From contig DATKCO010000019.1 in assembly GCA_035513155.1 (NCBI GenBank), forward strand, positions 3,576-67,575: a stretch of 64,000 bases of DNA, in the 5' to 3' direction. The notes below the pieces were generated by a model, which searched no databases, was not told the DNA's origin, and saw nothing but the letters and a program-made list of their open reading frames with translations. The position numbers were made by a program, and so were the translations under genes. This document shows positions 43,401 to 47,917 of this stretch, piece by piece. This DNA is from Gemmatimonadota bacterium (GTDB lineage: Bacteria > Gemmatimonadota > Gemmatimonadetes > JACCXV01 > JAHWKZ01). Positions within the stretch are counted from its first letter, which is position 1, and each line of letters starts with the position of its first letter.

Positions 43401-43783
43401 CACATCGTCCCGAGACTGGATGTCGGCTCGCCGTCCGGGACGACGCTGACTTTGTTCGCCACTCGATCTCGTGAGCGGCGCGATCACAACTGTTCGATCT
43501 TCGGGAATCATTCAACGTTGAGCTCTCACCTCGATCCATCCAGCGAAGTCCCCGCGGTGCACCGTGCGGGGCCGTCCGTCCGTGACCCGCTCGCAGGCGC
43601 CCTGCCGACGCGGCGCCTCCTGCGTCCGCCGCGCTTCCATGCGGCTGGAGCCCTGACCGCGGCTCCGCCGGGAGAGCACGGGTCCCGCTCGATGGAGGGG
43701 TGAAGGCTCGCGTCCGGGGGCATCCCCCGCGACGCCTGCTGCAAAGGACCGGACTCCATGCTCCGCATCTCCGCGAGCCCCTC

Positions 43784-45346
43784 GTGAAGCGCGAGATCCT
43801 CGTCAACGTCAGCCCCAAGGAAACCCGCGTCGCCATCCTCGAGGACGACCAGCTCTGCGAGCTGCTCGTCGATCGCGAGGAGGAAGAGCGTCACGTCGGC
43901 GACATCTACAAAGGACTCGTGACCGCTGTCCTTCCCGGCATGCAGTCGGCGTTCGTCGACATCGGGATGGAGAAGAGCGGCTTCCTCCACGTCTCCGACC
44001 TCGCGTCCAGCACCTACCACGACGATGACGACGACGAGGAGGAGGATGGCGGTAACGGCGGCGATCGCGGCGGCCGTCGCCGCCGCGGCCGTCGCGGACG
44101 GGACTCCGGCCCCGCGATCCAGGACGTCCTCAAGCGCGGTCAGGAGATCATCGTCCAGGTCACCAAGGAGGCGATCTCGACGAAGGGGCCGCGGCTGACC
44201 GGCCAGGTCTCCCTGCCCGGGCGGTTCCTGGTGTTCATGCCGGGTGTCGATCATGTGGGCGTGAGCCGCAAGATCGACGATCGCTCGGAACGCAATCGTC
44301 TGCGGCAGATCCTGCGCGACGTCAAGCCCACGGAGGGAGGCGTGATCGTGCGCACCGCCGGCGAGGAGACCTCGCGCGAGGAGTTCGAGCGCGAGGTCCG
44401 GGGCCTCACCGAGTCGTGGAAGCGCGTGCGCAGCAAGGCCGAGCGCTCGCCGGCCCCGGCCCTGCTCCATCAGGAAGAGGAGCTCACGTCCGGTCTCATC
44501 CGCGACATCTTCTCGGAGAAGGTGGACCGGCTGGTGATCGACGACCGGCAGCTGTACCAGCAGGTGCGCAAGTACCTCAAGAGCGTGTCGCCCGAGCTGC
44601 TGGACCGGGTCAAGCTCTACAACGACCGGATCCCCCTGTTCGACGCGATGGGGATCGAGCCCGAGATCGAGGGCGCGATGCAGCGCGAGGTCCGGCTGTC
44701 CTCCGGGGGTTCCATCGTCATCGAGCCCACCGAGGCCCTGGTGTCGATCGACGTGAACACGGGACGTTATACCGGCCGCAAGGATCCGGAGGCGACGATC
44801 CTGCGGACGAACCTCGAGGCCGCCCGCGAGATCGCGCGCCAGCTGCGCCTGCGGGACATCGGCGGGATCATCGTGTGCGACTTCATCGACATGGAGCTGC
44901 CGGCCAACCGCAAGAAGGTGCTGCACGAGCTGAAGTCGTGGCTGGGCCGGGACCGGGCCAAGACGAAGGCCTTCGAGGTCAGCGACCTGGGGCTCATCGA
45001 GATGACCCGCCAGCGCCGGCGGCCGAGCCTGTACCAGACGGCCACCGAGGTCTGCGACGACTGCGCCGGCTCCGGCCGGGTGCTGCAGTTCACCGCGCTC
45101 TCCCGGAAGATCGAGCGGCAGATCCGCCGCGTGGGGCTGTCGGGCAAGGAGAAGAAGGTCCAGGTCCGGGCCCATCCCGCGGTCGCCCTCCATCTGATCG
45201 AGGAGGAGCGGGGAACGTTCGACCAGCTCAAGAAGGAGTACGGCGTGGAGGTGGAGATCCGTGACGATCCCCTCCTCCACCGCGACGAGTTCAACCTGGT
45301 CTCGCTGCCAAGCCAGCGCCCGCTGAAGCTCGATCTGAGCGCATGA
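43784..45346 (+). CDS. rng: ribonuclease E/G family endoribonuclease
   Basis: Internal GTG. 520 aa with an S1 domain (GDIYKGLVTAVLPGMQSAFVDIG), VSIDVNTG, IIVCDFIDM and a CDDCAGSG Zn-link. Short, Rng-like length. Confidence 0.9.
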   Translation: MKREILVNVSPKETRVAILEDDQLCELLVDREEEERHVGDIYKGLVTAVLPGMQSAFVDIGMEKSGFLHVSDLASSTYHDDDDDEEEDGGNGGDRGGRRRRGRRGRDSGPAIQDVLKRGQEIIVQVTKEAISTKGPRLTGQVSLPGRFLVFMPGVDHVGVSRKIDDRSERNRLRQILRDVKPTEGGVIVRTAGEETSREEFEREVRGLTESWKRVRSKAERSPAPALLHQEEELTSGLIRDIFSEKVDRLVIDDRQLYQQVRKYLKSVSPELLDRVKLYNDRIPLFDAMGIEPEIEGAMQREVRLSSGGSIVIEPTEALVSIDVNTGRYTGRKDPEATILRTNLEAAREIARQLRLRDIGGIIVCDFIDMELPANRKKVLHELKSWLGRDRAKTKAFEVSDLGLIEMTRQRRRPSLYQTATEVCDDCAGSGRVLQFTALSRKIERQIRRVGLSGKEKKVQVRAHPAVALHLIEEERGTFDQLKKEYGVEVEIRDDPLLHRDEFNLVSLPSQRPLKLDLSA

Positions 45347-45759
45347 GCGGACGGCTCCGGCGCGTGCGGTGGGGGATCGCGCTGGCACTGGCCCTGGGCC
45401 CCGCCCTCGGCCTCGCGGGCTGCCAGGACCTGCTGCAGGAGCCGGACTCGGGGATCGCGCTCGCCCCGGTGCGGCTCGAGGTGGTCGCCGGCGACGGGCA
45501 GACGGGAGCGCCCGCGCGGGCCCTGCCGGCGCCCCTGAGGGTGAGGATCCTGGACGCGGAGGGTAGGCCGATGACCCGGATGTGGGTCGAGTGGACGGCC
45601 GACGCGGGATCGGGGCGGGCGACGCCGCGGAACACCTTCACGGATGCCGACGGCATCGCCGAGACGACATGGACGCTGGGACCGGACGCGGGGAATCAGG
45701 AGCTCCGGGCGAACCTCGGGCAGGCGCGCTTCGTGTTCCGCGCCACGGCGGCCCCGTGA
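45343..45759 (+). CDS. small lipoprotein with Ig-like (Big-type) domain, paralog 1
   Basis: 138 aa with lipobox GLAGC. GDGQTG...LPAPLRVRILD...TDADGIAETTWTLG pattern. ATGA overlap with rng. Confidence 0.65.
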   Translation: MSGRLRRVRWGIALALALGPALGLAGCQDLLQEPDSGIALAPVRLEVVAGDGQTGAPARALPAPLRVRILDAEGRPMTRMWVEWTADAGSGRATPRNTFTDADGIAETTWTLGPDAGNQELRANLGQARFVFRATAAP

Positions 45760-46157
45760 GCGCCGTCCGCAGCCCGGTCGTGCTGGCGGCCCTGATCGGT
45801 CTCCTGGCCCTCGGGTCGGTGGCCTGCGAGGACCTGCTGCAGGAGCCGGACACCGGGATCGCGACCCCGCTGACCCTCGTCGTCGAGTCGGGCGACGACC
45901 AGACCGCCGAGCCCGGATCGACGCTCCCCGCCCCGCTCCGGGTGCGGCTGGTGGACCTCCAGTCGCACTCGGTGGAGCGCCTGCGGGTCGAGTGGGTGGT
46001 GCTCGCGGGGTCCGGCCGTGCGAGCCCCCGGAACACGTTCCCGGACGACGAGGGGATCACCGAGACCACCTGGACGCTGGGGCCCGAGGCCGGCCTTCAG
46101 GTCGTGGAGGCCCGGGTCGGCTCGGAGACCGCCAGGTTCGAGGCCAACGGGAGGTAG
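45756..46157 (+). CDS. small lipoprotein with Ig-like (Big-type) domain, paralog 2
   Basis: Internal GTG (GTGA overlap). 133 aa with lipobox-like GSVAC. Roughly half its residues are identical to paralog 1 when aligned by eye. Confidence 0.65.
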   Translation: MSAVRSPVVLAALIGLLALGSVACEDLLQEPDTGIATPLTLVVESGDDQTAEPGSTLPAPLRVRLVDLQSHSVERLRVEWVVLAGSGRASPRNTFPDDEGITETTWTLGPEAGLQVVEARVGSETARFEANGR

Positions 46158-46170
46158 CCGGCCGCGACGG

Positions 46171-46200
46171 TTGACAGGGTCGTCGCGAGGGCGGTATTTT
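46171..46200 (+). promoter_or_regulatory. sigma70-like promoter upstream of rplU
   Basis: TTGACA (46171-46176), 18-nt spacer, TATTTT (46195-46200), about 50 nt before the ATG. Confidence 0.55.
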
Positions 46201-46252
46201 TCATCTTTTCGTCCGGGCCATTTCGGTCCGGCAGATCCCACGGAAGAGAGCC

Positions 46253-46696
46253 ATGCGAGCCATCATCGAGACGGGCGGCAAGCAGTTCGCCGTCGCCCCG
46301 AACCAGACGATCCGCGTCCCCTCCATGGCGGGCGATCCCGGGGACGAGGTCACGTTCGAGCGGGTGCTGTACGCGGCCGGCGACGACGCCGTCCACCTGG
46401 GCGACCCGCATCTTTCGGGGGCTTCGGTCACGGCCGAGATCGTGAAGCACGGGCGGGGCAAGAAGATCACGGTCTTCAAGTACAAGCGCCGCAAGCGATA
46501 CAGCCGCAAGAAGGGCCATCGGCAGGGATTCACCGAGCTGCGCGTGACCGGAGTCAGCCTGGACGAAGCGCGGGCCGCCGCGGCCGCCGGGACCGAATCC
46601 GACGCCGGGTCCGCGGCCTTCGTCTGCGAGGACTGCGGCAAGGAGTACAAGACCGAGCGCGGGCTCCAGCAGCACGTGGCCCGGGAGCACGCCTAG
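46253..46696 (+). CDS. rplU: 50S ribosomal protein bL21 with C-terminal C2H2 zinc-finger-like extension
   Basis: 147 aa. The N-terminal ~105 aa are bL21-like ([12 protein letters not shown]..., [16 protein letters not shown]). The tail is [25 protein letters not shown]. Confidence 0.9.
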
Positions 46697-46730: not shown

Positions 46731-46988
46731 ATGGCACACAAGAAGGGACAGGGCGCGTCGCGGAACGGGCGCGACTCTCCGGGCCAGCGGCTCGGGGTCA
46801 AGAAGTTCGGCGGCGAGCGCGTGCGGACGGGTCACATCCTGGTCCGCCAGCGAGGTACGCGCATCCATCCCGGCCTCAACGTCGGCCGCGGCAAGGACGA
46901 CACGCTGTTCGCGCTGATCGACGGCGTCGTCGAATACCGGCGACGGGGCGGGAACCGCCAGCACGTCTCCGTGCTGGAAGTGGAGTAG
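46731..46988 (+). CDS. rpmA: 50S ribosomal protein bL27
   Basis: 85 aa beginning [16 protein letters not shown], with the GNILVRQRG-like motif HILVRQRGT. Confidence 0.95.
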
Positions 46989-47917
46989 TGTCGACGAAGA
47001 TCACGGTCGTCGGCGCCGGCCACGTCGGCGCCACCACCGCCCAGCGCCTCGCCGAGCTGTCGATCGTCAACGAAATCGTCCTGATCGACATCATCGAGGG
47101 GATGCCCAAGGGCAAGGCCCTCGACCTCTGGGAGGCCGCTCCCGTGGTCGGGTACGACACCCGCCTCTCCGGGGGAACCGACTACGCCCTCGCAGACGGC
47201 TCCCAGGTCGTGATCATCACTGCGGGACTCGCCCGCAAGCCCGGCATGAGCCGGGACGACCTCCTCAAGAAGAACGCCGAGATCGTCCAGGGCGTCGCGC
47301 GCGAGATCGCGGAGCGCTGCCCGGAGGCCATCGTCCTCGTCGTCTCGAATCCGCTCGACGTCATGTCGTACGTGACGCTGAAGACGACCGGCTTCGACCG
47401 GAAGCGCGTCATCGGGATGGCGGGCGTGCTCGACACCGCCCGCTTCCGCTCCTTCATCGCGCTCGAGCTCGACGTGTCGGTCCGGGACGTGAGCGCGTTC
47501 GTCCTCGGCGGGCACGGGGACTCGATGGTGCCGCTGCCGCGCTACTCGACCGTAGCCGGGATTCCGCTCCCCCACCTGCTGTCGGAGGAGCGGATCGAGG
47601 CCCTGGTGGATCGCACCCGGAAGGGTGGCGGCGAGATCGTCGAGCTGCTGGGAAGCGGGAGCGCGTTCTACGCGCCCTCGGCCGCGGTCGTCGAGATGGC
47701 CGAGGCCATCCTGCGGGACCGCAACCGGATCCTCCCCTGCGCCGCATGGCTCCAGGGGGAGTACGGCCTCTCCGACGTCTTCGTGGGCGTGCCGGTCAAG
47801 CTCGGCGCAGGCGGCCTCAAGGAGATCGTGGAGATCGAGCTCACCGGAGAAGAGAAGAAGGCGCTCCACGCCTCGGCCGCGCACGTCAAGGAGACGATGT
47901 CCAAGCTGGATCTCTGA
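46988..47917 (+). CDS. mdh: malate dehydrogenase (LDH-like family)
   Basis: 309 aa with [23 protein letters not shown] has the specificity Arg typical of MDH. The GTG start shares 1 nt with the rpmA stop. Confidence 0.9.

Follow-up and report, generated by a model that had tools for sequence, protein, structure and literature searches.

The window analysed in this study is a 64 kb stretch of Gemmatimonadota DNA with a G+C content of 70%. At 46253..46696 on the forward strand, stop codon included, it contains rplU, a gene for ribosomal protein bL21 with a C-terminal zinc finger. The gene presents one unbroken frame of 147 codons with one stop, giving a 147-aa product, and rpmA (bL27; 46731..46988, forward strand; PF01016 E = 8.6e-36) starts 34 nt past the rplU stop codon. 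In all of these statements about the sequence, the original prediction was exact. The gene that follows, encoding a malate/lactate dehydrogenase (46988..47917, forward strand), has a GTG start that shares one base with the stop codon of rpmA, the TAG and the GTG together occupying 46986–46990. The adjacency of rplU and rpmA is preserved at all related loci examined, and the gene order rplU-rpmA-mdh-sdhC-sdhA is also present in two relatives (L036 and L037). From the overlap of mdh with rpmA and the gene order kept in these relatives, the ribosomal and TCA-cycle genes therefore appear to lie on one shared operon. Directly upstream of rplU, two tandem paralogous genes (45343–45759 and about 45756–46157, forward strand) encode small lipoprotein-like proteins with 56% identity over 108 residues and with Cys-containing signal peptides. 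Their match to the Big_1 Ig-like family is weak (29.7 bits; cutoff 34.9). RNase E/G is encoded at 43700–45346. A second copy of bL21 was not found within the 64 kb window.

A Sigma-70-type promoter for the rplU operon was identified at 46171..46200 on the forward strand, composed of TTGACA, an 18-nt spacer and TATTTT. It matches 10 of 12 consensus positions, and none of this kind was found in 50 shuffles. The TTGACA and GGTAtTTT boxes are kept at 17 related loci, both where rplU bears the finger and where, as described below, it is tail-less. Throughout the clade, the promoter spacer measures 17–18 nt before GGTAtTTT, and a CTTTCG element just 3′ of the promoter is also preserved. A purine-rich Shine-Dalgarno-like element, GGAAGAGAG, can be read from the sequence at 46242..46250 (forward strand), 5′ of the rplU start codon, and the ribosome-binding site GAGAGnAGAG is preserved among the aligned rplU leaders. 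RNAalifold detected no conserved RNA structure in 18 aligned leaders, and a search of the 64 kb window against Rfam at the gathering threshold returned one tRNA only and no leader family. No mRNA leader specific to the finger was found, the same type of promoter and leader being present in tail-less relatives.

The bL21 domain occupies residues 1–101 (46253..46555, forward strand) and is ordinary, as had been expected of the amino terminal part of the protein. It scores 124.6 bits against PF00829 (cutoff 27, E = 2e-36) and 108 bits against TIGR00061 (cutoff 43.7). When the barrel of the AF2 model was compared by Foldseek with ribosome-bound bL21 chains, the target TM was about 0.89 with an RMSD of about 2 Å. 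The net charge of the bL21 body is +9. Residues 102–122 (46556..46618, forward strand) make up a linker that is rich in Ala and acidic residues and is predicted to be disordered, with an AF2 pLDDT below 50 at residues 107–120. The finger region corresponds to the C-terminal 25 residues (123–147, nt 46619–46693).

Within this region, a classical C2H2 zinc finger spans residues 123–146 (46619..46690, forward strand) and is aligned end to end by PF00096. The original prediction had read the last 25 residues as a C2H2 consensus with four metal ligands and three hydrophobic core positions, a reading that stands. The ligand codons, all on the forward strand, are those of C125 (46625–46627), C128 (46634–46636), H141 (46673–46675) and H146 (46688–46690), and the hydrophobic core consists of F123, Y132 and L138. 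The finger motif exceeds what chance would give: in its strict form it occurs once in a six-frame translation of the window, and it was absent from 200 codon-block shuffles, in which a loose C2H2 pattern occurred at a mean of 0.075 per shuffle. Against a gathering score of 25.2 bits, PF00096 gave 22.6 bits for the whole protein, 25.0 for the last 45 aa, the segment originally proposed for an HMM check, and 26.8 for a 28-aa tail. The same family was matched at E ≤ 0.01 by 61 of 73 relatives. Two families of dsRNA-binding C2H2 fingers remained below their cutoffs, namely zf-C2H2_jaz (PF12171, 17.2–21.4 bits against 22.6), to which weak matches were present in 27 of the 73 relatives, and zf-met (PF12874, 12.7–14.3 bits against 21.2). 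At the sequence level, the tail is also matched to C2H2 fingers of known structure, such as that of ZBTB24 (E = 4.4e-5).

None of the bL21 chains in the PDB covers the finger tail. An AF2 calculation on the whole protein, made with a 73-sequence alignment, produced a confident barrel, a disordered segment at residues 107–120, and a β-hairpin plus helix at residues 123–145. Submitted alone, the finger was again predicted as a β-hairpin and a helix (pLDDT = 89.9), which is the ββα fold anticipated for it. The best 50 PDB matches identified by Foldseek for the finger model were all classical C2H2 fingers, among them Tramtrack, BCL11A, CTCF and Zif268, with TMq values of 0.62–0.86 and RMSD values of 0.4–2 Å, the E-values being non-significant at a length of 30 residues. 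A profile made from the bL21 tails alone retrieves thousands of classical multi-finger proteins, which supports membership of the classical C2H2 family. With very high confidence, the anatomy of the protein can be given as a bL21 domain, a disordered leash, and one ββα Cys2His2 finger.

The finger-only profile was run against 1.84 billion cluster representatives. The matches were dominated by long multi-finger, eukaryote-like proteins and gave no clean map of prokaryotic hosts; only short matches such as P0235 and P0244 were informative. Four of the matches in the representative library (P0127, P0129, P0133 and P0194) are long eukaryote-like proteins with many widely spaced single fingers of the same K-[ST]-x-R-G-L-K-Q-H-V-S-K-S-H flavour and acidic or Ser-rich spacers between them. 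The C-terminal domain of P0129 is a nucleotidyltransferase of the Mab-21/cGAS type.

A search of 5.8 billion proteins returned 1,601 bL21 matches, including full-length homologues of the 147-aa protein, and the best 120 clusters were inspected. The finger is present in 114 of these 120 clusters. Those that bear it stem from independent assemblies (JGI, ENA, NCBI and Logan), and all that carry a name belong to Gemmatimonadota. Ranking by the bL21 domain alone gave the same result down to about 66% domain identity, and the finger architecture is found in more than 110 independent clusters with bL21-domain identities from 99% to about 66%. A frameshift or fusion artefact, which the original prediction had already doubted, is excluded by this recurrence and by the continuous frame. 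A precomputed zinc-finger Pfam match exists for only 2 of the best 120 clusters, so that the domain is mostly missed by automated annotation. Most copies score just below the Pfam threshold; this would help to account for the feature having been overlooked.

Two members of the collection have unusual sequences. In P0114 (181 aa, from an ENA contig of 4246 nt), an amidohydrolase-like PF04909 segment takes the place of the finger after the bL21 domain, probably through chimeric assembly or a frameshift in the gene call. The finger-bearing bL21 at L006 (2620–3126) has an 11-residue acidic insertion in a barrel loop, with the local sequence DDGSDHGDAPDRDSA, and a 15-residue acidic tail beyond the finger.

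The register C-x2-C-x12-H-x4-H is common to all 111 full-length homologues, and its 12-residue spacer agrees with the earlier assignment of the finger to the classical rather than the Ros type. Among 103 distinct finger cores, the four ligands, Arg at +2 and Gly at +3 (R136 and G137 here) are invariant. The ligands are also invariant in the 73-sequence alignment; thus, in the comparison of orthologues that had been suggested, close relatives do carry the tail, and its four ligands are kept wherever it occurs. Nearly invariant in the finger cores are the Gly after the second Cys, a Tyr/Phe, Thr/Ser at −1, Glu at +1 and Leu at +4, and Gln at +6 is found in 75 of the 103. The variable positions are +5, +8, +11 and both residues between the cysteines. 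The canonical contact positions that are conserved comprise the Lys after the second Cys, Thr at −1, Arg at +2, Gly at +3, Gln at +6, a small residue at +9 and Arg/Lys at +10. Conservation is found on one face of the helix (+2, +3, +6, +9 and +10) together with the Lys of the β-strand. Pooled over 13 genes, dN/dS was 0.21 for the bL21 domain, 0.86 for the linker and 0.51 for the 25 codons of the finger. By this measure, selection on the finger would be only intermediate, and it is the column conservation that carries the case instead.

The linkers of the homologues are 6–43 residues in length (median 21), unalignable, and rich in Ala, Glu, Lys, Gly and Ser, with minimal 6-residue linkers in several subclades. 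The linker is net negative in 78 of 113 sequences, the tails that extend 0–15 residues past the last His are acidic, and the finger is about neutral. The linker evolves almost neutrally. An acidic and variable leash is unlike the basic extensions that ribosomal proteins thread into rRNA.

One genome per species, for 185,579 species, was scanned with the narrow pattern CG[KN][ETS][YF][KDG]TER. Twelve bacterial loci were found, all in uncultured Gemmatimonadota and all at the 3′ end of rplU, which places the finger in one bacterial clade only. With a pattern this narrow, no cultured species was found among the 185,579 species genomes. Six close relatives are tail-less (P0111, P0115, P0116, P0119, P0120 and P0277). 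Their rplU genes are complete, with genuine stop codons and rpmA immediately next, and no finger remnant was found after any of the six in any frame. In a tree made from the bL21 domain only, the tail-less sequences are placed singly within finger-bearing subclades. For four of the six, the bL21 domain is 89–95% identical to that of a finger-bearing neighbour and at most 84% identical to that of any other tail-less sequence; P0111 and P0115 retain part of the linker. This nesting of tail-less genes in finger-bearing lineages shows that the finger is ancestral to the uncultured Gemmatimonadota clade and was deleted at least four or five times. Because complete tail-less genes exist in close relatives, the finger is also dispensable and hence accessory.

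The same finger subtype, CGKEFDTERG[LM]xIH, is found at the termini of unrelated DPANN proteins. At loci L011–L035 the sequence takes the form C-P-x-C-G-K-E-F-D-T-E-R-G-M/L-x-I-H-x-x-Q-K-H, for example in L022 (2680–3072, CP046106) and L026 (2674–3072, CP012986). In Nanohaloarchaea, the carriers are two-TM proteins of roughly 110–134 aa in which the finger lies behind a strongly acidic linker. Other DPANN carriers include the amino termini of membrane proteins, V-ATPase subunit D (L035), a nucleotidyltransferase (L020) and a wHTH protein (L033). In Aenigmatarchaeota, eL31 has two C-terminal fingers (14 clusters; P0235 and P0280–P0292) and eS24 has one (2 clusters; P0293 and P0294). The fingers of both proteins are trailed by a conserved helical tail, GGTISEAK...PDYE.LLE.EK.NKDRKGMKKFLE; therefore, one module is present on a large-subunit and a small-subunit protein. 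With carriers as unrelated as these, the finger type appears to be a mobile terminal module, joined to ribosomal proteins on at least two occasions. A JGI label of 'ribosomal protein L34E' for P0236 had no Pfam backing and was set aside.

With respect to function, the original prediction had suggested an additional contact with rRNA or mRNA, or a moonlighting role in nucleic-acid binding. bL21 is described as contacting 23S rRNA and bL20 at the subunit surface, and the extensions of chloroplast bL21 as making further contacts at the surface, close to uL13 and uL22 and next to the exit tunnel (bioRxiv 10.64898/2026.07.03.736309). Because the bL21 body would sit on the solvent face of the 50S subunit, against 23S rRNA and bL20, the finger would be presented there as a zinc-binding module on a tether. 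Since the canonical contact positions are the conserved ones, the recognition face of the finger would most likely make a weak, accessory contact with nucleic acid. Since some lineages have linkers of 6 residues only, the most probable target would be 23S rRNA within about 25 Å of the bL21 C-terminus, contacted in the mature subunit or while it is being assembled. An accessory contact of the finger with the 23S rRNA of its own subunit is plausible and is the favoured, if tentative, reading.

Several observations qualify this reading. Ribosomal protein extensions that bind rRNA are usually basic, and single C2H2 fingers that lack basic flanks are usually weak binders of nucleic acid. As the linker and tails are acidic and the finger about neutral, an rRNA contact of the embedded kind is disfavoured. 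The six tail-less relatives argue that the contact is unnecessary for a working ribosome, related fingers on unrelated archaeal carriers disfavour a single dedicated rRNA site, and the intermediate dN/dS of the finger also counts against an rRNA contact. That C-terminal extensions of bL21 can stay flexible is seen from Flavobacterium johnsoniae, whose bL21 in 7JIL has 147 aa in its sequence and 104 modelled, leaving the extension unmodelled. Many of these properties would suit a finger that is carried on its acidic leash as a capture module and recruits in trans a partner from outside its own subunit, be it a protein factor, another ribosome, mRNA or DNA, much as acidic stalk proteins present a small domain to factors. 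A linker that is disordered, acidic, variable in length and almost neutrally evolving would serve this purpose, as would a finger of about neutral charge. Capture in trans also agrees with the terminal position of the same finger type behind acidic linkers on unrelated DPANN carriers, with the Aenigmatarchaeota fingers on large-subunit and small-subunit proteins alike, and with the ability of single C2H2 fingers to mediate protein–protein contacts, as indicated in PMC12774644. However, the 6-residue linkers of several subclades would give almost no reach, it is the canonical nucleic-acid face whose residues are conserved, and the neighbours of rplU (RNase E/G, Ig-like lipoproteins, rpmA, mdh and sdh) include no candidate partner. 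Recruitment in trans is possible, if somewhat doubtful.

Ribosomal proteins commonly regulate their own synthesis in bacteria by binding their own leaders, and the finger of free bL21 might bind the mRNA leader of rplU-rpmA in the same way. This is very unlikely given that no Rfam leader family is present in the window, that RNAalifold found no conserved structure in the 18 aligned leaders, and that tail-less relatives have the same promoter and leader. A Cys2His2 site on an abundant ribosomal protein might also act in zinc economy as a store, a buffer or a zinc-dependent fold switch, which parallels a proposal made for zinc-ribbon ribosomal proteins with C+ and C− forms. The dispensability of the finger is in keeping with such a role, and its repeated loss in close relatives recalls the way in which other bacterial ribosomal proteins have recurrently lost zinc sites (Makarova et al. 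2001 and Panina et al. 2003, as cited in PMC3353972). A role in zinc economy is nonetheless improbable: the non-ligand surface residues T, E, R, G and Q are conserved to the same degree as the ligands, the losses delete the entire finger with no replacement of ligands, and no second copy of bL21 occurs within the 64 kb window. Dispensability and a single-finger Pfam score near threshold would also be expected if the tail were an artefact, whether an assembly or frameshift error or a recent sequence capture, or a neutral appendage with no function. Such an origin is scarcely credible and has been largely refuted by the like architecture of more than 110 independent JGI, ENA, NCBI and Logan clusters down to about 66% domain identity, the invariant ligands and spacing, the confident fold prediction, and the fact that the linker diverges freely whereas the finger does not.

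No account of a C2H2 finger on bL21, eL31 or eS24 emerged from full-text literature searches, in which the name of the E. coli strain BL21 interfered with 'bL21' queries, and the leashed zinc finger of bL21 appears to be previously undescribed. Lineage-specific extensions of ribosomal proteins and zinc-binding ribosomal proteins are already known, whereas a bacterial ribosomal protein that bears a C2H2 finger of the classical, eukaryotic type is not known from the literature searched. Outside eukaryotes, classical C2H2 fingers have been recorded only sparsely, and the bL21 finger is a clean bacterial example. Its subtype recurs on archaeal eL31 and eS24, which suggests that ribosomes have acquired small zinc fingers by grafting more than once. 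With these carriers as examples, ribosome-borne C2H2 fingers on acidic leashes might be recurrent, unrecognised accessory modules of prokaryotes that, rather than just adhering to rRNA, recruit a specific partner or sense zinc, a generalization that is speculative and rather unlikely. If it were true, zinc sensing or the recruitment of a factor, an RNA or another ribosome at the ribosome surface would amount to a new layer of translational control. Sister lineages that lack the finger, with bL21 domains as much as 95% identical, are natural knock-outs (finger-bearing and tail-less lineages pair up as P0073/P0111, P0058/P0115, P0074/P0116 and P0081/P0277, among others), and because these exist and a domain of 25–30 residues is easily synthesised, the function of the finger is directly testable.

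The bL21 finger may be compared with several known systems. With the eukaryotic C2H2 fingers of PF00096, such as those of TFIIIA, Zif268, Tramtrack and CTCF, it shares the C-x2-C-x12-H-x4-H spacing, the three core positions and, according to the predicted model, the fold (2drp_A, TMq 0.85, RMSD 0.9 Å). Unlike the eukaryotic arrays, it is single, has no TGEKP-type linker, and is flanked by acidic rather than basic sequence. It differs further in being carried by a bacterial ribosomal protein and in its conserved T-E-R-G-L helix start with Gly at +3. The Ros/MucR proteins likewise present a bacterial Cys2His2 site in a ββα element. Their spacer from the second Cys to the first His is 9 residues (PMC9779718), whereas that of the bL21 finger is 12, in a unit of about 25 residues that ends 0–15 residues past the last His. 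Membership of the Ros/MucR group is excluded by spacer length and domain size, and AF2 gives one helix. The archaeal virus protein AFV1p06 is another classical-type finger outside eukaryotes, with zinc and DNA binding shown experimentally (PMC3541406); it is a stand-alone viral protein with Glu instead of His as the fourth ligand and no link to the ribosome.

Among ribosomal proteins, bL31, bL32, bL33, bL36, uS14, bS18 and uS4 resemble the finger-bearing bL21 in placing zinc on a ribosomal protein in a lineage-variable manner. Their zinc is held by Cys-rich ribbons or knuckles in the rRNA-binding body, and is lost by ligand substitution, often with paralogues present. The original prediction had set bL21 apart from these ribbons, and the distinction is upheld by a Cys2His2 site, a ββα fold in the predicted model, and a separate leashed domain that is lost by deletion of the whole finger. 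This mode of loss also excludes bL21 from the C+/C− class of zinc-ribbon ribosomal proteins. The bL21 extensions of F. johnsoniae (7JIL), of the alphaproteobacterial PRK12278 type and of chloroplast bL21c have the same attachment point as the leash and are low-complexity sequences after the barrel; in contrast to the Gemmatimonadota tail, they contain no folded domain. The eL31 and eS24 proteins of Aenigmatarchaeota share with bL21 the finger subtype, CGKEF-x-[ST]-x-RGL-x-x-H-x4-H, an acidic linker, and a position at the C-terminus of a ribosomal protein. They differ in being archaeal, in carrying one or two fingers with an extra helical tail, and in belonging to both subunits of the ribosome.
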